From: Yuukianura sp. NJ FZ-2021
Lineage: Eukaryota
NCBI GenBank assembly: GCA_046563655.1
Contig: CM102288.1
Location: 6,076,001 to 6,140,000, forward strand
Direction: 5' to 3'
Length of the DNA: 64,000 nucleotides
Part shown: positions 8-33,666 of the stretch, in pieces
How positions within the stretch are numbered: the stretch's first letter is position 1
How the letters are laid out: every line of letters begins with the position of its first letter
The notes under the pieces: model-generated
The model's database searches: none
The model's input: only the letters and a program-made list of their open reading frames with translations
Told to the model about the DNA's origin: nothing
Made by a program: the position numbers and the translations under genes

Positions 8-2828
8 TTAGACATGTAACCCGTTTGTCCAGCGCCGTCCCTCCCGCAGTATCTCTGAGTTGACCAAGGACGGTGTTTGGGTATGCGGAGAGGGCGGAGC
101 CAGCATCGTAGGGGGAGGAGCCAGCATTGAGTTGATGAGGTCATAGGTTCCTCCAAGCGTTAGAGGCACAAAGTGATGTGAGTTCAACTCCCGCTCTTGG
201 AGATACTCGGGTTCAAATGTCGGTGGAGTATTGTTGTAAGTGGAATTCAAATTTTGAAAGTTGGCGCCATTTCGAGCAATGGGCGGAATCCACTCTGGAA
301 CGTCATAATTAAACGGAGACTCCGCCTGTCGCACCATCATCAAAGGAGGAGGTTCTGGATCGCTCTGAAATGTTTCAAAATGGCACCCATTTCGAAATTT
401 CTCAAAATCAATTTTGAGTTCAAAGGTTTCGAAATTTTAAAAACTCAAAAAAATAGAAAACAAAAAGAAATAGGAAAGTCAAGAGGAAAACACACAGCAG
501 GGGGAATTAAACCACAAATTGATTCTCGGAATTCAAAAAAAAAACCCAGGAAAACATCAAAGCATTTCCAATTTGAAACCAAAAAAAAAAAGCTAAGCGA
601 TGCTTGAAGTAGTTTTTTGCAACGATTTTTTTTTCAAAAACTGACCTTAAATTCGGTTCGCGTTTCCTTCGGAGGTTTTCGGATTCTACGAAAGCAGAGA
701 CATAGGAGTATGATGAGTAAAATAGTAAGCGTAAGCAAGGCTCCAAGACAAATGATCAAAATCCAGAGCCAGGATTGGCTGGGTACCAAAACTCCGCCTC
801 CAGCTCCGCTTCCTGCTCCAGCTCCACCAATAAGCGCTCCAAAATTCAAAGTTATGTTCCGCTCCACACTTCCAGCTGAAATTTACAAACAAAAAACACG
901 TTTTAGCGACAGAAATTTGAAATTCGAACGGCAAAGAATTTCCAGGAAATTTTTTCGCGTTTTTTTGAGCCTCAATATAATGTGAGCTGAGATAGCGCCC
1001 TCCATCCTTTGTAGAATGGAGCCTGATAGCCTAAGGGTTAGAGTGCTACCCGGATAGAAGAGCTATGGGTTCGAATCCCATTCGGTCCGTTATTTCTTTT
1101 TACACTCTAGTTCTTTGTCTGTCAAGTCATGTGACCCCTGAACGTAGCAGTAACAAGCTCACCTTTGTTTTCTCCAACACAAGTGTAGTCTCCGGCATCA
1201 CCAAAACTAGTTTTCGTAAAGGTCAAGTTGACCCAGCGGTCGCCCTCTCCGCTGACTTGCACAAAATACGGCTTCCCATTGGCTGTCGCCGTGCTGTTCG
1301 TCATTCCAATGGAATCCTTGATCCAGCGAACTTCCGCTGGAGGATTTGCTCTAACGAGACATTCCAGTCTCACTGCTGGTCCAATGTCGCCGGCGACATA
1401 CGTTCCTGATGTCGCCTGATGCCCACTGACCGTCACTGCCACGATTTCTGGAGGACAAGCAAAGTGTGAGGTAAGAAGTTGCGTCCACTCAAAATTTGCC
1501 AATCGGTCTGGTTGTGAGCACTTCGGAGGCTGGATTCCGAGGAGCTTGTTTCTTAGGGCCCAGTCCCTTAATCCCTGCAACTTACAGTCGCAGTGCCAAG
1601 GGTTGTCATGGAGACTAACAGCTTTTAGCTTAGACAAGTTTTCAAATAGGAGATCGCTCAGAGTGTGGAACTGGTTCCCACTGAGGTCAAGTTGCTCCAA
1701 AGAGGTCAACTGCTCAAAAGTTTTTGGCGGAATACTGCTTAAGTTACACCCACGAAGCGATAGTTTTTGAAAATGCTGAAGCGGCGGGAAACCGGCTCCG
1801 AGAAGGCGCGAAATCGGGTTTCCCGAAATTTGAAATTCCCGCAATCGGTCGTTTGTGTCGAACGAATCCATGCTCCACTCTTTAATGTTGTTGTCACCTG
1901 CAATTAAAAATAATTCCAATACATTGCATTGGTCCAATTACATAAGTCTTACGTAGTTATCAACAGAGATCCCAGAAATATTTAGTCCCCATCCTGTAAT
2001 GTTAACAAAATCAATATTTCGGGCTTTTTTGTTTGTAAATATTTATTGATTTTCCCATGCCCTTATAAAAATGTAAATACTTCAACGTTTTTCAATAAAT
2101 AAATTAAATATATAAATATTTCGGCTGTTTTTAGAAAATATTTCTGGGACCTCTGGTTATCAATTATCAAAGGCCGGAAAAGAATCTTCTAAAAAAAAAG
2201 GAATTTTCCTTAAATTATACTCTAAATTTCATATTAAATTTCTAGCTTTTTGAAATTTGGAATTTTCCTTTTATTTTTTTTTTAATTTCTGTATCTACTA
2301 AAGATTTTAAAGTCCTAAAAAATTTATGTTAATTTTCCGGCCTATGTTAATTTCTTACAGATAAGTTGTGCCTACACTTTGTACTTTGTTAATTTGTTAA
2401 ACATTATGCAAATTATAGTTTTTACATAAATTTTTTTTAAACGAATTTGAAATGAAAGTTGAACACTTACTTAAATCCAGTTCCACGAGTATCTTGAGAT
2501 CTGCAAATGCGTAACGCTCCACTCTAGCGATTTGGCAGTGCGTCATTTTTAGTTTGTGGAGATTCACTAACCCGGCATCACGAAAAGCATAGTTGCGTAG
2601 AGTCGAAATTGCATTTCCACGCAGATCCAGAATTTGCAACTCTTCGCTCAATCCGTTCGGTACTGTCGTGAATCCAGCATCACGACATTCTGCCGTCTTC
2701 CGTCCACCAATCCACATGCAAACACAGCCAGAAGGACAACCGTGGGTCCACTCAGCCACCGAGCCACCAAAAAGTCCCACCAAAACCAGCCCCACTAAAA
2801 TCCACTTTTTAAATTTCATACACCGCAT
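8..2828 (-). CDS. Kekkon-family LRR-Ig transmembrane protein (4 exons: 2828-2471, 1897-1163, 875-646, 364-8)
   Basis: Signal peptide, LRRNT (CPSGCVCMWIGGRKTAEC), LRRs, LRRCT (NPWHCDCKL...PPKCSQP), Ig domain (DAGDYTCVGENKAGSVERNITL), TM helix (WLWILIICLGALLTLTILLIILLCLCF) and Pro-rich tail. All GT-AG junctions keep frame. Confidence 0.9.
1019..1143 (+). mobile_element. tRNA-derived SINE-like repeat, family A (intron 2 of the Kekkon-like gene)
   Basis: A-box TAGCCTAAGGG, B-box GGTTCGAATCCC, T-rich tract and tail CAAGTCATGTGACCCCTGAACG shared with the copy near 59.4 kb. Confidence 0.75.
1964..2155. mobile_element. hAT-like MITE
   Basis: TIRs CAGAGATCCCAGAAATATTT / AAATATTTCTGGGACCTCTG; perfect 8-bp TSD GTTATCAA at 1956-1963 and 2156-2163. 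Confidence 0.85.
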
Positions 2829-26143: not shown

Positions 26144-28696
26144 TCATACGAAAAGCCACCAAAACGCGTTTTTTACACTAGAGACTAAAATCGGCGTTAA
26201 TTCAACGCTCAAAACGAGGAGGCAAAAAAAGAAGCAAACTCCGCAAACCATAAAAAGTGTTTGGATGTTAGACGACAATTGAACGGGTTTGACGTGATTG
26301 GCCACCTTGCGTGACAAATGAATTTCTTCATTTGGATCAATATAAATAGTTGGCTTAATCCGCCGATGCCACTGGAACCACTGCGGCAGAATTCCAGATT
26401 GCATCAGGAGATGAAACTGTCGGTACATTCTGGCAGTGGCTGGTCGATGAAAATGAGGCAACAGGAAAGCGTTCCACATCTTGAAGAGCTGTGACTCCCC
26501 TTTTTTATAAGGCCCATGACCCTTCTCCTCTGCAATGGCCATGATAGTGTCCAAGTTGTCGTCATAGTCAATGTACCCCACATTGTCACATGATTTGGTG
26601 AGGTTGACAATGTCCTCATAGTACGAACGGAGACTTTGTTTGGGAACAGTTGAACCCCACCACAGCCCTTGTCTGCTTTGAATTACAATAAATGCATGAG
26701 CAAATGGCACGGGCGTGGCGCCCAGCGACTTCTGCAGACCCTCCTTCCAAGCCACGACCATAATCGAGTCGCAGAAAACTGATGAATTTGGATACCAAAT
26801 TAAACGGTTTTCTCGGTAAGCAAGATCCAGCATTTTGACTTTATGATCATCTTCGTTGTATGAGCAGAAGCCCGGAGGCATTTTTGTCGGAATGGATAGG
26901 TTCATCATGTCAAAAGTATTGCGCAGTAAGGAACAATTTTTACCTGGACTGCCGTAGTTGTGTCCATCCCAATTCGAGCAAAGGGCACCCACACCACCCT
27001 TGTTCAGTCTCGTGATTTCCGCGTTGAGCTCCGGATAACAAATACAATTGCGTAGATTTGTAATGAAGTTCCAATCTTGCCCGTACGGTTGAAGAACGTA
27101 AGGGTTTTGCTCAACTAAAGTAATGTGCATGTCCTTGTAGGTTTGGGTGGCATAGAAAAGGAACCCTGGCATCTCCGTGACGTTGACGTGCGTCGCGGTG
27201 ACGTTTGCGGGCAATGTCAATTCCGAAGTAACGATTCCCTTGTAAGCCCCGGCTAGAACGATCATCAGAAGTAGCCAACTTCCAAGTACGAATTTAGTCG
27301 CCCGCATTGCCCCAGGAACGTTTTGGAGGCTGTGTGGAAAGGTTTCGCCAATGTCGAATGTTCCTGCGACATTAAAGAACAAAACTTCGTTCATGAGCTG
27401 GACATTTTGACGCCATGTAGCTGGTGCTGCCAAACTCAATTTCCTGTATAATATTACGACAAGGGGAAAAATTACGAGGATGCAAGCAACATAGACGATC
27501 CATGTGGTCATGTCGTAAGGTGCTACGTAGAAAAAGAAGTTTAGGCGTTGCTGAACCCCGTCACAGGTCATAAAGGTCATCCATCGCTGCCCGAGTTGTA
27601 GTACCGACCGGTGGACACGGAATTTGTCATCAACAAATGGCGAGTAGGCCAGGTCTTGCAGTTGAATTTTGTCCAACATATTGGAGCTTGCGATTGTCAA
27701 TTGTATCTCCAATTCTTTTACGGATTTGGTATCGCTTTCGAAAAAAATCCTTAGGTCAACTCCTTCCAGTAGGAGCCATTGGGTCAATGTGACGATACTC
27801 GTATGATTATAGACTTCTGGCTTTGACCTACCCGGTGACCCAATGTGTATCCGCGTAATGTCCTTGATATGTTGAAACCTCGGGTCATTTAGTAACAATG
27901 ATCGATTTCTGTACAACTCGGTTGCATTCGCTGAGCAGTTTGCGTTATAATCCAACGCCACCGTACATTGTCCAGAATAGTTGCCCGGGACAACTATCAA
28001 TCCGTCCAGAAACGGTTCCATGATCTTGTCAACCGTGGATCTACATGATGAGTATCCTGTCGACCCATTGTGGCATCTTCCCATTTCTACTTTCTGCGAG
28101 AAGGACGTCCACCAACCAAAAGGAGGCATTAAATAATTGGAGTACGGTACGTTACCAAACGTCATCGTTGCGTCCATGAGCTCATAGTAACTGGTCATTA
28201 TACTTTTCCGTTCGGCATGCCTCCGATACACATAATGCGTCATGAACAAGTTTTGCCGCGGTAACCTATGTAGTTCAAGCAGTTCTTCATCTTTAATCAG
28301 TTTTCGATATGGGTCGTCTAGCAGTACATTGACGTACATGGACCGGTAAGCTTCGGGATCCGGGTAATAGGGATGGAAGAAATCCCAAAAATCATCATTC
28401 TTCTCCAACACAGCTTCTGGATACACTATGAATAATGCAATTGAGTAATTACTCTTTCGCCATGACCTGTGAACTTCGAATTTTCGTATTGGCAGCTCAA
28501 CCATCATCGAGGGAACAGAAGTAATCGGCCCCACATCAAGGTCGTATGAGGAATTTCCGACCTTGAGAATAAGAACTTCCGAGTCTGCGTATTCTGCTAC
28601 CAGTTCATTCACGCCTTCCAAAAACCGCACTTCCTTGGTTTCCGATAATGCAAGGAAACAGGCCGTAAAGATGAGCAGAGTTTTGAGAAAAATCAT
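26144..28696 (-). CDS. Divergent intronless ionotropic-receptor-like (IR) protein, 850 aa
   Basis: Signal peptide; TFMTC...FYVAPYDMTTW before M1; M3 WLLLMIVLAGAYKGIVTSELTLP; LMQSGILPQW; C-terminal M4 IQTLFMVCGVCFFFCLLVLSVE. Confidence 0.8.
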   Translation of the reverse strand: MIFLKTLLIFTACFLALSETKEVRFLEGVNELVAEYADSEVLILKVGNSSYDLDVGPITSVPSMMVELPIRKFEVHRSWRKSNYSIALFIVYPEAVLEKNDDFWDFFHPYYPDPEAYRSMYVNVLLDDPYRKLIKDEELLELHRLPRQNLFMTHYVYRRHAERKSIMTSYYELMDATMTFGNVPYSNYLMPPFGWWTSFSQKVEMGRCHNGSTGYSSCRSTVDKIMEPFLDGLIVVPGNYSGQCTVALDYNANCSANATELYRNRSLLLNDPRFQHIKDITRIHIGSPGRSKPEVYNHTSIVTLTQWLLLEGVDLRIFFESDTKSVKELEIQLTIASSNMLDKIQLQDLAYSPFVDDKFRVHRSVLQLGQRWMTFMTCDGVQQRLNFFFYVAPYDMTTWIVYVACILVIFPLVVILYRKLSLAAPATWRQNVQLMNEVLFFNVAGTFDIGETFPHSLQNVPGAMRATKFVLGSWLLLMIVLAGAYKGIVTSELTLPANVTATHVNVTEMPGFLFYATQTYKDMHITLVEQNPYVLQPYGQDWNFITNLRNCICYPELNAEITRLNKGGVGALCSNWDGHNYGSPGKNCSLLRNTFDMMNLSIPTKMPPGFCSYNEDDHKVKMLDLAYRENRLIWYPNSSVFCDSIMVVAWKEGLQKSLGATPVPFAHAFIVIQSRQGLWWGSTVPKQSLRSYYEDIVNLTKSCDNVGYIDYDDNLDTIMAIAEEKGHGPYKKGESQLFKMWNAFLLPHFHRPATARMYRQFHLLMQSGILPQWFQWHRRIKPTIYIDPNEEIHLSRKVANHVKPVQLSSNIQTLFMVCGVCFFFCLLVLSVELTPILVSSVKNAFWWLFV

Positions 28697-29457
28697 GTTT
28701 CAAGATTCAAAGTTTGGTTCAGGAACTGTTTTTTATATTGTGCTTTAGGTCTTGGATAGTCTTAGAGGAAAATATTCTTCAAGCCACACCTAGCAACAAA
28801 ATGGCGAAGTGAGGAAAAGCTTACGAAACATGCAATGAAACTTAAATTATTAATTATTATCATTTTAATTACTAAGAGTGTTGTTGCATGCTGGGAAATT
28901 AGCATCTTGCCGGGAATGGGGAGGGATTCAGTGACTATTGACTTTTACTTTTACAAAAAAATTTGAAATTTTCACCAATCCTGAAAGTGAGTACAAGCAG
29001 AAGTGTTATGCTTTTTGTTCTCTTTTTAGACAAAAAATTTTGAAATGCTTATCATAACTAATAGCTATCATAAAACTATCATATCTTATCTGTCATAACT
29101 ATCTATCATAGCATGTGTAACTATCATAATGAGGTGTAATGTAAAATGACCTATCTTTATCGCACTACGGAGCGTGGCTTCAACCTTCAGGGCGGACGGA
29201 CAGACAGACAAGTTCAATCCATAAAGTAGCCTCTGCTAAGCTTAAATTTTAACCAATTTTATTAAAATTATCAACCTTAGACACAAAAACTGTTGATTTT
29301 TGGTAAGAGGTAAAACATATAGTTAAAAATTAAAATTCAAATAATATTTTAAGGTATTGGCGAGAAATGTTAACGGAGAAGAATAAAATGATGGTTGGAG
29401 TAAACCAGAGTTGCATCTGCTGTAACCACTGCCGCCATGTTTACAACCAAATAGTGG

Positions 29458-32400
29458 TTACAGGCGGGAAAAGGTTTCCTTGTTATTTTTAGAATCAGTA
29501 TGTTCTGACTCAAAAGACATCGTAGTTGGGAATGTCGTACCGTAGAATCCAGTCGGTGTTGGATTCAAATGGAAGTTCAACGGCATGGTTTGTGCCAGTG
29601 TTGTCGCTGGAAGTGTCGTCGCTGAGACATTGCGACTACTACGCTTTCTGTAGGCAAGTATTCGTGGCCTGGCAACAACTTTTGGAACGACTTGATGGAG
29701 ACATGATGGCAACAGGGTGGGTCGGAGGCGCCGTGTCACGGGTTCGACGGCCACTTCGCTACTACTTCCAGTACTTCCAGCATATGTACTTCCAGTACAA
29801 CTTATCTTCTCGTCCAGGAAACTGTACACTGGTATAGTTGGTGATACAAAGACCAGATCTCTCAGGATTTCACTCTGGGACAGTTTGGACGTAGACATCA
29901 AATCTGAAGACAGGACAAAGTGACGAAAGTCCGCATTTTTATGTTCGTGCCAAAGTGTGTCCAAGTGTAAGCGATCAAGCGTTTTCCTCCAGTCTAAGGT
30001 GTGTCTCCACCTAGAAAAAAAGCACAGATCACTAAAAAATTCAGTAACTAATAATATAGAAACTTCTTATCGAGGTTATCCCGTTATCCAAAACTTTATC
30101 CAAAAACCAAACACTAAATTATCTTAAGTTATTGAAGTCTATCGTTAGTTTTTTCTTTTTTTTTGTACCTTGCTTCGAATCCTCCAATCATGAGATCAAA
30201 CAATTCCTTGGAGTTGAGTCCAAGAATTCTGGAAAAGGACCATTCCGAAGGGATCGTGGGCCCTTCAAGGGACAAATCTTGAGCAAAATTCCTCTTCGGA
30301 AAGAGAGACCGATGTGTCCAGTGAGGATCGTAAATGCAAAGCTGATTCGGAAACATTCGGCGTCTTTCGGGCGGAAGTTCACACAAAAGTCCATTGTCAA
30401 ACAGAATCGCTGGGTACAAACTCCAAGGCAGCGTCATGTAAAACGAATGCTTTCGCTTTCGGTTCTCGTCTGGATCACTCTGCGTCTAGAATTATCAAAA
30501 TCCATTAGGAAAACCAATAAAAATAATTTGTTCTTATAAGTTAGGTTAAGGCAAGGTTCCTATAGAAACATAATAGAATTTCTTTAACAGGTTAGACACG
30601 GTCTAACCTGTTAAAGTCCCGGTTTCAGAAAAATCTCTGCCAACCTTTTTTTTTCACAAAGAGTTGTTTATCGCTTGTCTTGTCTTGTCTTGATTGTCTT
30701 TTCGTTTTTGAAATGGATAAAATTGTTTTGAAAAAATTAAAAACAAAAGCGACGTATTGCCTAACCTGTGAAAGAAAAAACTATTCTCTTGTTTACGAAC
30801 CTTGACTTACGGTTCTTCAAATTTTTTTAAATTTCGCATGGATTGTTTTTATTATTTGCTTTTAGTTAATTAGTTTATAAAGAGGATTAATTAATTTGTA
30901 CCTCTCTGAGTCGGATTGGTGTTGTCAGTCTATTCCCAACGTCCGAATGAATTAAATGCTTGACGGGGAACCATCTCCGGGTCAAGTTCGGACTTCGTTC
31001 CTTGACTTCTACAAAAAACAATTCAAGATTTAGGGTTAAATTACGAAAAATCCTTAGATTAAGAAAAGTTGTCCTTACCTATGGACACGGACTGTTCATT
31101 TCCAGAATGCGGACTAGCAGCATGGAATTCCATCTTATCTGCCCTCTCGTGAGCAGCATCTTGGTCATGTATCGGTCTGAAGCAATGTCTTATCTCTGCC
31201 AGTATTCCAGAACGCAGCGGTGGTTCAGCTCCCGATTGTTGCAAATAGTCAGAGCACATACTGGCAAGTTGCTTGGTGCGAGAAAGAACTTTGTTGTGCA
31301 AAACCGACCGGATACGAGACACCTACAACCAAAAAAAAAAAACACCAAAGCTTGAAATTTTGATGTACTGGAATACTTGAAAGTACTGGATACTAGGAAG
31401 TACTTGAATACTTACTCGCAGCACTTCGTCTCTGCACATGTGGACGTAGATTCTTCTGCGTTTCAAGTTCAGCATTTGGACCATCTTGGCCTCTTTTTGC
31501 CCCGCGACGGCCCTGACACCGCTTCCGCTTAAAATTTCCGAGGCAATTGACATTCCACTGTCGTCATAGGAAGACGAAGAGTCCACAATTTCCACAGAGT
31601 TGAGTGGTTCATGGATTGGCGGCGGTGGACAGACGACATGTGACACTGGCGACATCGGTGACTCTGCAGAGGCAGTCAGTTCGTCAGCATCGAATTTGAA
31701 GTAAGTGTCCAAGTTGAGGGCCGATGTCGCCGTGATGTTCATGTAGTCGCTCAGACTGTCGTCGTCTTCGTCCATTTCCTCGATTCTCTTCCTCTCTCCA
31801 GTGTCAACACACTCTTCATCGTTGTCTTCACGAGCAGTTTGGTTTAAATTTAACTTGTCATGTGTGATAGAACGCTTCATACAATCACGAAAGTCACCGT
31901 AAGTGTGTAACAGCTTATCCGGATCGTCTTTAAGTTTTAGCTCCCCTCCTATTCCGGTTTCATCAACTCCGATTCCGGTTTCGTGAACTCCGAGTCCCGG
32001 TACCAGCAAGGTGTCGTCCGGAATCAAGTCTCCGGTGACCGAACCGAAACGTTTTGAGATCGTTATGTCTGGAATTCCACCTGGAGATGGGCATTTGAGT
32101 TTGATGTCACAAATGGAGCTGGAGTGGCTGTCATTCCATTTTCGTTTTCTCTTGTGATCAGAACTGGATCCGAGGAATGACATCAAGTAGTCGTCCGCTG
32201 GTGAGTTTAGAGTTGGAGTTGACTTGTCCAAGTAATTGTGTAACTCTAAATCAGAAAGAGGGAATGCTGGATCTGTTTGCACTTTGACATTGTCACTGTC
32301 GTTGGATATCGGCGAGAGACCGAGGGAAGAGTAGCAGTTTGAGGGTGAAAAGGCTCCGGGGGATTGCTGTTCCAGCTTTTCGTTGAAGTAGGCCCGTTGA

Positions 32401-32858
32401 CGAGCGACACCCATTAGGTTCAGGGTGTGGATTGCTTCGTTAACAACGGTAACGGTACGCTTGTCATTCTCAATTTTCAACTGAGGTTGTAGTTGTATGG
32501 GCAGTGGAGCATTGGATTCATCGTCAGAGCCACTGGAATCACTTGAATGTCAGACAGAAAAAAGAAGATAAAATTGAAATGATTGATGAATGTTGAAAAT
32601 TGATTGATTAGGTTAGATTGATTGATTTCAAAAACTTTACCTCAGTCTCCCGGCAAAGAGTTCGCCCAAATAGTCCAGGTACGGTTTCAAATTGAGGGCT
32701 CGTCGGACTCGTTCTTCGTAGGGCAATGCTCTCTCGGCGGCTAACCTTTCTGCAACTGTTAACTTATTGTTCGGAACCAGCCGACTACTGGAGTTATTAG
32801 CTGATCTAACCGAACTGTCCCACCGCTGTTGGCACCGAGGAGCTCCTCCGTTCATCAT
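29458..32858 (-). CDS. INO80-derived protein lacking the Snf2 ATPase, 854 aa (exons 32858-32641, 32541-31416, 31322-31079, 31008-30902, 30485-30169, 30010-29458)
   Basis: Exons sum to 2565 nt, open, with GT-AG introns. Colinear blocks resemble the recalled INO80 N-terminus (VRRALNLKPYL; LSDLELHNYL), HSA/DBINO start (LNLKRRRIY...KQLASMC) and insertion domain (HRSLF...WSFSRILGLNSKELFDLMIGGFEARW; LRDLVFVS; PTLLPSCLHQVVPKVVARP). No Walker A, DEAx or HELICc motifs. Confidence 0.8.
30552..30804. mobile_element. MITE of the CAAGGTT-TIR family, in intron 4 of the INO80-derived gene
   Basis: CAAGGTTCC...TCTTTAACAGGTTAG at left and its inverse CTAACCTGTGAAAGA...GAACCTTG at right. Confidence 0.7.
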
Positions 32859-33118
32859 TTCTGAAAAGGCCTTCACAACTTTCAATGTAAAAGTGGATTT
32901 GAATACTGCAAACGTTTTTTCAAACACTATGGTTGCTAACCAACCTGAATTTGATATGTGAGATGTCAATTTTCATTAATCGTCACAACACAAGATCGGC
33001 CAGTTTCTAGTGCTTCAGAATGATAAATGACCCCAATGATTAATTCACAATTATTGAACTGACAAGAGAACAAATCGATCAGTGTCCTTTTTCATGCTAA
33101 GTGCTAAGAAAGCCTTAA

Positions 33119-33262
33119 CCGTGTGGTATTTTGCGAACGGGAATGACAAGGGTCTGACTATTCCCCTGACATGTGTTTTCTCTCATTGAGGTAAAGGAGA
33201 AAAACCACGTGTCATGGGAATAGTCTGACCCTAGTCATTCCCGTTAGCAAAATACGACACGG
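33119..33262. mobile_element. Palindromic MITE-like element
   Basis: About 60-bp arms CCGTGTGGTATTTTGCGAACGGGAATGAC... / ...GTCATTCCCGTTAGCAAAATACGACACGG. Confidence 0.75.
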
Positions 33263-33666
33263 TATTCAATATTCAATTGCTACTTATAAATATAGGTATT
33301 TTAGGTATAAATTCAATTCATGTTTACAAAAAAACGAGACAACTTTCGCTGGTAAGTTTTCCAACACAAAAAAAAGTACTTGGGTTGCCTATTCCTGGGA
33401 TATCGCAGAGACGGCTAGATAAATAAGCTGCGATTTTCAACAGAAAATATGCGATCTCAGAAGCGGACTTGTTTTTTTTTTTAGTTCACCTTTACTTCTA
33501 CGTAGCAAAATTTGTGAGTTCCACTTTGACCTGACCGTTGGTCATGATGAAGGTTATTGAAGGTCATTGAAACCTATATTTCCTGCTAGATTTCTCGATG
33601 CGTGTGTGGATCCGTCTTTTCACAGTATAGGCCGCAATAATCCGCGATCCGCCTTTTAGGGAGACC

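Follow-up and report, generated by a model that had tools for sequence, protein, structure and literature searches.

Sequence comparison demonstrates that a six-exon, single-copy gene of Yuukianura sp. NJ FZ-2021 (32858-29458, minus strand) descends from the Snf2-family remodeller INO80. Positions refer to the window, i.e. the whole 64-kb stretch of DNA that was analysed, and the gene lies entirely within it. Both halves of the ATPase have been lost, but the N-terminal region is kept together with the segment on which RUVBL1/2 normally docks, and for this reason the gene product is probably a non-catalytic scaffold. A preliminary description of the locus had already proposed descent from INO80 with loss of both RecA lobes, and the present analysis bears this out. 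With moderate confidence we propose that the protein would serve as a non-catalytic adaptor or decoy tying the RUVBL1/2 ring into a remodelling-dead assembly, and that it arose from INO80 by stepwise loss of the motor.

The spliced coding sequence comprises 2565 nt and encodes 854 amino acids followed by a stop codon. The five introns measure 99, 93, 70, 416 and 158 bp and are bounded by GT..AG in 5/5 cases, with the weak-looking donor sequence GTACAA at two of them. The six GT-AG exons, the 854-residue frame and the intron lengths of the preliminary description were all reproduced by this gene model. The next ORF on the same strand begins near 28699 downstream, leaving an intergenic gap of about 758 bp, and an Rfam search at the locus returned no matches. 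The parts of the locus are collected in Table 1.

Table 1. Parts of the INO80-derived locus, in window coordinates.
Feature	Position	Strand	Description
Exon 1	32641..32858	-	Start codon; protein start MMNG as in L001; conserved N-terminal INO80 motif
Exon 2	31416..32541	-	N-terminal region, aa 73-448; final ~23 residues open the HSA/DBINO region
Exon 3 (fused)	31079..31322	-	5' part resembles L001 exon 3 (HSA start); 3' part resembles L001 exon 8, decayed
Exon 4	30902..31008	-	Decayed equivalent of L001 exon 9 (segment ending ...QLRK before CNHP); now linker
Exon 5	30169..30485	-	Spacer insertion, first half; acceptor same as that of the L001 exon starting VCNHPD
Exon 6	29458..30010	-	Spacer insertion, second half, then TDSK, 9 residues and stop
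TDSK	29488-29499	-	Sits where INO80 has DSGK
Stop codon	29458-29460	-	
Linker, aa 486-575	30456..31211, including introns 3 and 4	-	Probably what is left of the post-lobe-1 part of the motor; sequence close to random, still open
High-copy repeat in intron 4	30744..30889	.	Seen from contig depth
3' flank to next gene	28700..29457	-	Without lobe-2 relic; repeat at 29138-29283

In blastp the spliced protein matched sea-cucumber INO80 (P0004) with an E-value of 4.6e-16 (aa 502-727 against 800-1022), and a second, colinear block was found at 8.8e-4 (aa 427-511 against 333-426). The same sea-cucumber protein was placed onto exon 5 by tblastn with an E-value of 2e-6. Profiles built from canonical INO80s alone were then scored against the protein, with 1000 shuffles of it as control. 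The insertion profile gave 80.3 bits (aa 588-786; 29665-30419) where the best shuffle reached 5.1, and the HSA-start profile gave 13.9 bits (aa 426-475) where the best shuffle reached 5.4; the match to the N-terminal-domain profile was weak, at 9.6 bits (aa 49-114) with a best shuffle of 7.3. For none of the three profiles did any of the 1000 shuffles attain the score of the protein itself, and the order of N-terminal domain, HSA start and insertion is identical to that in INO80. The resemblance to INO80 noticed earlier is thus significant by both blastp and the shuffled controls. The colinear blocks that had been identified against human INO80 are real too: in a 20-sequence alignment chimpanzee INO80 (P0043) carries all of them, with one residue differing in the IQ.SLF block, and each is aligned with the window residues that had been assigned to it.

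Pfam searches with single exon frames (5/5) gave nothing at threshold; the sub-threshold matches, to DUF4196 (E 0.024), DUF6399 (0.077) and Consortin_N (0.035), were unrelated and were set aside. Exons 2, 5 and 6, taken singly, had no phmmer match in the PDB at E-values up to 10, and when exon 5 was compared with longer proteins in a word-indexed homology search, none of the 37 candidates had an E-value of 0.01 or below. The protein Atlas returned for exon 5 bacterial clusters alone (scores of at most 0.88, low recognition) and was uninformative. Exon 2 has motifs common to three species in a three-species alignment, and a search of 1.84 billion representatives brought up just two relatives of it (E 2e-74 and 1.5e-29).

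The nearest relative of the window gene is an INO80-like gene on the metagenome contig L001, for which 16 exons were modelled (at least 1403 aa). In this gene Pfam finds DBINO (3.6e-13) and SNF2-rel_dom (8e-21), both lying between exons that it has in common with the window gene. Among PDB entries it comes closest to human INO80 (3.5e-28), and its equivalent of exon 5 aligns to human INO80 residues 809-904. Window exons 1, 2, 3, 5 and 6 are matched in L001 with E-values of 1.3e-7 to 2e-80, the exon-wise values being 1.3e-7 for exon 3, 2.6e-19 for exon 5, and 1.3e-11 and 0.003 for exon 6. The two proteins are 51% identical over exon 1 and 54-56% over the N-terminal exon; for the HSA start the figure is 57%, for the insertion 36%. 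All five window introns correspond in position and phase to L001 introns, namely 1, 2, 8, 9 and 10. The fused exon 3 is 244 nt long where L001 has 99+141 nt, and the intron that follows it keeps the position and the phase 1 of L001 intron 8; exon 4 has 107 nt as against 110 nt, and its flanking introns are L001 introns 8 and 9 by position and phase. On the 3' side, 0/21 downstream ORFs match. Since 3' synteny with L001 is absent, orthology of the two genes can only be presumed, and the 3' truncation may mark the breakpoint of a rearrangement.

Unlike the window gene, the L001 gene keeps DBINO and both lobes, but with altered hallmark motifs, and it has other downstream neighbours. Walker A has GKR in place of GKT, a TGTP has become TGRP, and alterations are found in motifs III, V and VI as well. 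The L001 lobes are 48-54% identical to canonical INO80s, compared with 69-98% among the canonical ones. They keep 126 of 187 near-invariant columns, as defined by a 17-of-18 rule that absorbs one poor member per column in the canonical set of 18, whereas at least 98.9% of the columns are kept in 13/18 canonical sequences. In a leave-one-out control 82% of the conserved lobe columns were kept by a shortened chimpanzee isoform, 81% by an Allomyces protein and 69% by an Ophiocordyceps protein in which DBINO gave no match, these being the three poor members of the set. The L001 motor was compared with fungi, sponge, molluscs, echinoderm and vertebrates only, with no arthropod INO80 as control; no arthropod source appears among the named proteins in the 120 matches listed. 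The fragment P0003, followed as a lead to arthropod INO80s, proved not to be arthropod.

Compared with INO80 (human, PDB 7zi4_G and 6hts_G; sea-cucumber P0004), the window protein has the N-terminal motif, the start of HSA/DBINO and the long insertion in the same order, but measures 854 aa against about 1500-1600 aa and is missing the lobes, most of HSA/DBINO, the post-HSA and the tail; it cannot serve as an ATPase. RecA lobe 1 (SNF2-rel_dom, motifs I-III) is absent, and so is RecA lobe 2 (Helicase_C, motifs IV-VI), the ORF ending nine residues past TDSK, in agreement with the figure of about 10 given earlier. Searches of the 64-kb window by tblastn with canonical INO80 and with 19 L001 exon pieces found neither of the two lobes nor the distal DBINO. 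In the same searches neither the 29 kb downstream of the gene nor the 31 kb upstream of it showed any lobe sequence, and the 3' flank gave no significant match to a lobe-2 relic on the gene's strand. The statement in the preliminary description that a helicase domain is lacking was in this way confirmed, both by tblastn over 64 kb and by the empty Pfam results for five of five exon frames. The long INO80-type spacer insertion (aa ~566-800) is retained whole.

DBINO/HSA (PF13892) has no Pfam match in the window gene, and the profile recognises its first ~50 positions only, with 13.9 bits against 87.8 for L001; in the alignment the rest of the HSA helix, the post-HSA and the C-terminal tail are missing too. 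With about 50 HSA residues left, binding of the Arp8 module is unlikely. The earlier suggestion that Arp8/Arp4/actin binding had been retained found no support, the rest of HSA/DBINO being deleted.

Relative to L001, the gene is missing exons 4-7 (distal DBINO, post-HSA and lobe 1 motifs I-III) and everything from exon 13 onward. The edges coincide with L001 exon boundaries, and this arrangement supports two separate losses with frame and introns kept, as had been put forward before, all five introns having counterparts in L001. Within exon 3 the HSA start is followed directly, without an intervening intron, by the post-motif-III segment. A precise skip from exon 3 to exon 8 was considered as the origin of the fused exon and rejected, since in L001 it shifts the frame (exons 4-7 = 1108 nt); window exon 3 is 4 nt longer than the two L001 exons summed. 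The stretch between HSA start and insertion had been described as an unrelated linker of about 105 aa. A linker it is, but not a fully unrelated one, as part of it appears to be a decayed motif III-CNHP segment in which two introns equal L001 introns 8 and 9. A profile of the post-lobe-1 segment found no match in the window protein, so the support for reading the exon 3 tail and exon 4 as remnants is limited to their colinear order, the exon lengths, and the position and phase of the introns.

The signs of constraint are suggestive, not strong, and the selection signal is borderline. Variants were taken from contigs at 90% likeness or more, and some may come from other individuals. Among the best-supported 40 of 90 variants, 19 are coding, with 8 synonymous changes over 586 sites and 11 nonsynonymous ones over 1976, giving a pN/pS of about 0.41 (one-sided binomial p = 0.049). 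The single coding indel among the same 40 is 15 bp long and in frame, and the noncoding indels among them measure 1, 2, 3, 5 and 17 bp. Against canonical metazoan INO80s, the insertion of the window protein shows 23-27% identity and that of L001 22-27%, compared with 30-33% between canonical phyla, and the insertion profile scores of the two proteins are level (78.9 bits for L001). For the leftover motor segment the corresponding identities are 12-22%, 49-56% and 75-78%; since the segment has diverged almost to randomness, the loss of the motor would be old. The chance that the 90 codons of this segment would stay open if unconstrained is about 0.005. Exon 2 shows 42 unique changes in the window lineage and 20 in L001 (chi-square 7.8), a doubled rate that fits relaxed constraint as well as a new role. 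Selection for a non-catalytic role, which the preliminary description had inferred, is thus weakly supported, by the pN/pS value, the in-frame 15-bp indel and an insertion score equal to that of L001.

An assembly or gene-model artefact, whereby ATPase exons were collapsed out of the assembly or lie far off and are spliced in, is largely refuted and hardly credible. High-copy repeats do break many contigs at the locus: at 30744-30889 the summed X1 contig depth is 22934 as against ~220 alongside, with many loose ends at 30745-30807, and at 29138-29283 the contig depth is 1772. The independent sample X5 has no contig over 29062-29714, where the stop codon lies, or over 30164-30413. In run X5, moreover, 33087 is joined head to tail to 30414. 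However, a second-haplotype contig of 4012 bp from run X2 spans 29344-33050 and hence the whole gene, one X5 contig is unbroken over 30414-31340 and bridges the lobe-1 gap, X1 and X5 contigs join exon 3 to exon 5 with no extra sequence, and an X3 contig crosses the stop codon (28912-29513). The uninterrupted passage within exon 3 from HSA start to post-motif-III segment, and the absence of lobe sequence from the surroundings of the gene, speak against an artefact too.

It is unlikely, though considerably less so, that the gene is a decaying partial copy, i.e. a duplicated or rearranged INO80 fragment that has lost its motor, is non-functional and has an open frame by chance. The roughly twofold faster change of exon 2 relative to L001, the missing 3' synteny, the repeats in intron 4 and the 3' flank, the two weak-looking donors and a pN/pS that is borderline below 1 among the best 40 of 90 variants are all in line with decay. 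Yet 854 codons are open over six exons with 5/5 GT-AG introns in conserved phase, the insertion still scores as in L001, the linker has stayed open since an old loss, and the sole coding indel among those 40 variants is in frame. A third reading, improbable in our view, takes the gene as the only INO80 gene of the genome, the lineage having given up INO80 remodelling or moved the motor, with L001 as a half-way state of the same orthologue. It draws on the erosion of the motor in L001, the only full-length relative found, and on a contig depth at the locus that equals that of the flanks. It draws also on the two relatives of the N-terminal exon among 1.84 billion representatives, by which no second, more canonical copy from the group turned up; the databases for this group, however, consist mostly of gene calls on metagenome fragments, so that such an absence means little. 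INO80 is moreover conserved and important in the animals studied, which counts against this reading.

Within INO80 the RUVBL1/2 ring organises Ies2 and Arp5-Ies6. Published work assigns binding of the RUVBL1/2 ring to the insertion and that of the Arp8 module to the HSA (PMC13720256), and describes an N-terminal module made up of metazoan-specific INO80 subunits (PMC4560432). A non-catalytic adaptor or decoy of the kind we favour would neither bind nor hydrolyse ATP, would not translocate DNA, and would hardly be able to hold the Arp8-actin-Arp4 module. Its retained insertion would dock the RUVBL1/2 ring, and its retained N-terminal region, which is of metazoan type, could possibly bring the partners of the N-terminal module. 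It would probably act beside a normal INO80 encoded elsewhere. As to its origin, erosion of the motor would have come first, with the domain still in place as it is in L001, and the motor exons would then have been lost by two deletions. A more far-reaching version, which we hold only tentatively, describes a pseudo-remodeller made stepwise in an arthropod lineage from INO80 or a copy of it, by erosion of motifs followed by excision of both RecA lobes and the Arp8-binding helix, and selected as a linker between N-terminal module and RUVBL1/2 that may function as decoy, assembly factor or RUVBL1/2 regulator; in its boldest form it would be the sole INO80 of the genome.

Among known proteins, EP400NL, the human EP400 N-terminal-like protein, is similar to the window protein in the idea of a motor-less scaffold, but belongs to the EP400 subfamily and to vertebrates, and the two are likened by description only. 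EP400NL keeps the N-terminal region and is not known to keep more, the RUVBL-binding insertion included. It is a natural INO80-family remodeller paralogue without ATPase, and a NuA4-like complex without the EP400 ATPase has been reported (bioRxiv 10.1101/2021.05.30.446361). The portions of the literature that the search covered contained no naturally occurring paralogue, pseudogene or motor-free version of INO80, the nearest case being EP400NL from the other subfamily. For yeast proteins in vitro, Rvb1/2 ATPase activity is stated to be 16-fold higher on Ino80 binding (PMC11118528, citing its reference 37). Compared with that in vitro system of Ino80 and Rvb1/Rvb2, the gene described here would supply the insertion in a natural form free of the motor. 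The study behind the 16-fold stimulation reportedly used the isolated insertion.

Work on the insertion and N-terminal region of INO80 usually treats them as components of the enzyme, and a natural protein with just these would amount to a separation-of-function form. Such a protein could show what the unit of RUVBL1/2 and insertion does, together with the N-terminal module, when there is no remodelling, and whether the retained modules sequester shared subunits from the active complex. It could also show a path from essential enzyme to pseudoenzyme in which motif erosion comes first and domain excision later.

The minus-strand gene at 29458-32858 is an INO80-lineage gene by descent. Joining its exons by script gave a coding sequence of 2565 nt (854 codons and a stop) with introns of 99, 93, 70, 416 and 158 bp, GT..AG in 5/5, which reproduced the six-exon open frame and intron sizes of the preliminary description; the distance to the next gene, put there at ~700 bp, was measured as ~758 bp from the stop to a same-strand ORF beginning near 28699. 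Single exons revealed little of the ancestry: phmmer searches of PDB with exons 2, 5 and 6 gave no chain at E <=10, and a word-indexed homology search with exon 5 gave no match. The blastp comparison with INO80 that had been proposed earlier was significant. Against P0004, a sea-cucumber INO80 of 1612 aa returned by search, the spliced protein aligned over aa 502-727 (P0004 800-1022, E 4.6e-16, 26% identity), with a second, colinear match of aa 427-511 to 333-426 (E 8.8e-4).

An exhaustive HMMER search of 1.84 billion representatives with window exon 2 returned two relatives only, P0001 (E 2e-74, 54% identity) and P0002 (E 1.5e-29, 44%), each a single-member cluster from metagenomes and a single-exon gene call that stops at the exon 2 boundary of the window. 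The 11,139-bp metagenome contig containing P0001, L001, has counterparts of window exons 1, 2, 3, 5 and 6 in the same order, and in addition ~2 kb that separates the counterparts of exons 3 and 5, and more coding sequence beyond exon 6. Pfam gave matches in 5 of the 13 pieces submitted, with DBINO at E 3.6e-13 and four consecutive pieces matching SNF2-rel_dom (8e-21, 1.6e-11, 2.6e-7 and a sub-cut-off 2.6e-4). For the first lobe-1 exon the top PDB match was human INO80 (7zi4_G, E 3.5e-28). The insertion exon drew 11 PDB matches, 10 of them INO80 chains, and its human alignment extends into a block quoted in the preliminary description. Judged by their sequence, the extra pieces are parts of INO80. 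The L001 gene was modelled with 16 exons, an open frame of 1403 aa and GT-AG at every intron, and its introns 1, 2, 8, 9 and 10 share position and phase with the five introns of the window gene.

In an alignment of 20 sequences (L001, the window protein and 18 proteins obtained by search), the chimpanzee INO80 row contained all the colinear blocks earlier quoted for human INO80, each facing the named window residues and with one residue different. Regions were then scored with profiles built from canonical sequences only, with 1000 shuffles as control (see table). Since the window gene fails 3/4 defining features of the INO80 enzyme family, it is not to be filed as an INO80 ATPase.

Coordinates of features and, where profiled, scores in bits
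Feature	Position	Window	L001	Best of 1000 shuffles
Insertion profile	window aa 588-786	80.3	78.9	5.1
HSA-start profile	window aa 426-475	13.9	87.8	5.4
N-terminal domain profile		9.6	9.1	7.3
Motor-leftover segment	window aa ~486-575			
Acidic N-terminal motifs	31500-32300 (exon 2); L001 570-1749; also in P0002			
L001 INO80-like gene	L001 272-5773			
Next gene downstream	26144-28699, minus			
MITE-like inverted repeat	33118-33263			
High-copy repeat, intron 4	30744-30889			
High-copy repeat, 3' flank	29138-29283			

Window exon 3 (244 nt) equals L001 exons 3 and 8 (99 + 141 nt) fused with no intron between, and L001 exons 4-7 (1108 nt), which encode the distal DBINO/HSA, the post-HSA and lobe 1 motifs I-III, have no window counterpart. 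Exon 4 (107 nt) corresponds to L001 exon 9 (110 nt), and exon 5 and the L001 exon opening VCNHPD share their acceptor. TDSK stands at the place of INO80 DSGK and the stop follows 9 residues on, close to the 10 or so described before; L001 exons 13-16 and beyond (lobe 2, tail) are without counterpart in the window gene. Lobe or DBINO relics were sought in all 64 kb with 19 L001 pieces and INO80, and nothing significant was found; Pfam found no family at threshold in 5/5 single exon frames, in line with the earlier statement that the locus holds no helicase domain. None of the 21 ORFs downstream on L001 matched the window, and positional orthology is therefore unproven; the 3' truncation may be the mark of a rearrangement.

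An apparent loss of this kind could also arise if ATPase exons had been collapsed out of the assembly. The locus was present in five DNA runs from two studies (X1-X5), the contigs of which were aligned to 28700-33050. A 4012-bp X2 contig covers 29344-33050 with 22 substitutions relative to the window, and thus represents a second haplotype. Exon 3 to exon 5 is bridged by X1 contigs and by a contig of the independent run X5 (30414-31340), the stop codon is crossed by an X3 contig (28912-29513), and contig depth at the locus equals that of the flanks, which together make a collapse very unlikely. Another X3 contig, at 31409-31651, had a depth of 8x (vs 50-250x), was 5% diverged and had an intron 2 shorter by 69 bp; possible sources are a more distant second allele or a related individual in the same sample. 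In X5, which comes from organism B, a 2699-bp contig of depth 142.9, with neighbouring contigs at 2-5, joins 33087 directly to 30414. The resulting 2.67-kb head-to-tail unit, either a tandem array or a circle, runs from the upstream region through exons 1-4 and 72 nt into exon 5, and differs from the window by 9 substitutions, the low-depth X5 flanks being ~1-4.5% different.

Variants were taken from contigs aligned at >=90% likeness. Among the best 40 of 90, 19 were coding (8 synonymous in 586 sites, 11 nonsynonymous in 1976 sites; pN/pS ~0.41, one-sided binomial p = 0.049) and 21 fell in 1786 noncoding bases; the only coding indel listed was of 15 bp, and the noncoding ones of 1, 2, 3, 5 and 17 bp. 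The motor-leftover segment, 75-78% identical between canonical phyla, retains 49-56% identity to canonical INO80s in L001 and 12-22% in the window, where no profile match was obtained, a divergence indicating that the motor was lost long ago. The insertion is 23-27% identical to canonical INO80s in the window and 22-27% in L001 (30-33% between canonical phyla); it has been kept as INO80-like as that of L001 while the leftover motor segment decayed. The decayed segment is still open (probability ~0.005 if unconstrained), the N-terminal motifs are 54-57% identical to L001, and all splice sites are intact. The polymorphism, the comparison of leftover with insertion and the intact splice sites point to constraint; against it count the changes unique to each lineage in exon 2, 42 in the window and 20 in L001 (outgroup P0002; chi-square 7.8), and the restriction of the polymorphism figures to 40 of 90 variants from contigs of >=90% likeness. 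Acidic N-terminal motifs, such as DDDSLS.YMNITA...LD..FKFD.DELT and LK.K.DPDKLL, are sharply conserved in the three species and do not occur in the canonical INO80 alignment rows.

As described in PMC13720256, the HSA of INO80 recruits actin, Arp4 and Arp8, and the RUVBL1/2 ring, bound by the spacer insertion, organises Ies2 and Arp5-Ies6. The N-terminal module of the complex is reported to consist of metazoan-specific subunits (PMC4560432), and Rvb1/2 ATPase activity to rise 16-fold on binding to Ino80 (PMC11118528). The window protein has lost the motor and almost the entire HSA but still contains the N-terminal region and the insertion. Binding of the Arp8 module through the HSA, as proposed earlier, is accordingly not supported. 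The insertion would provide a putative dock for the RUVBL1/2 ring, and the N-terminal region a putative contact with N-terminal-module partners. The best-supported interpretation is that of a remodelling-dead adaptor or decoy, predicted to bind these two sets of partners. Its closest analogue in the sources cited is human EP400NL, likewise a motor-less remodeller relative, related to EP400 and reported in a NuA4-like complex without the ATPase (bioRxiv 10.1101/2021.05.30.446361). Within the collection of papers searched, queries for INO80 paralogues, pseudogenes and truncated natural forms returned engineered truncations only.

The L001 gene is a full-length INO80-like gene from a related organism. 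Its frame is open across all 16 exons, and the motor domain has thus been retained. Of 187 lobe columns in which 17 or more of 18 canonical sequences agree, it keeps 126; this comparison set covered fungi, a sponge, molluscs, an echinoderm and vertebrates. In a leave-one-out control 13/18 kept >=98.9% of such columns, the outliers being a shortened chimpanzee isoform (82%), an Allomyces protein (81%) and an Ophiocordyceps protein without DBINO (69%). Compared with 15 canonical INO80s, the L001 lobes show 48-54% identity, against 69-98% among those INO80s themselves. Walker A is changed from GKT to GKR and motif III from TGTP to TGRP, with further alterations in motifs V and VI. In Drosophila INO80 the motifs are canonical. 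The L001 motor is probably catalytically impaired, making the gene a candidate pseudo-ATPase in its own right.

Downstream of the window gene, the next gene is a single-exon ORF of 851 aa that contains hydrophobic stretches and had no Pfam match at E <=0.001. The neighbourhood also includes C2H2 zinc-finger genes, an LRR-Ig gene and exons of ionotropic-receptor type, one having arthropod, IR75a-like sequences as nearest Atlas clusters, which makes an arthropod host probable. Many contig ends fall in both high-copy repeats, with summed contig depths of 22934 (vs ~220) in intron 4 and 1772 in the 3' flank. The MITE-like repeat, ~260 bp 5' of the start codon, has 70-nt arms that are 87% complementary and 6 nt apart.
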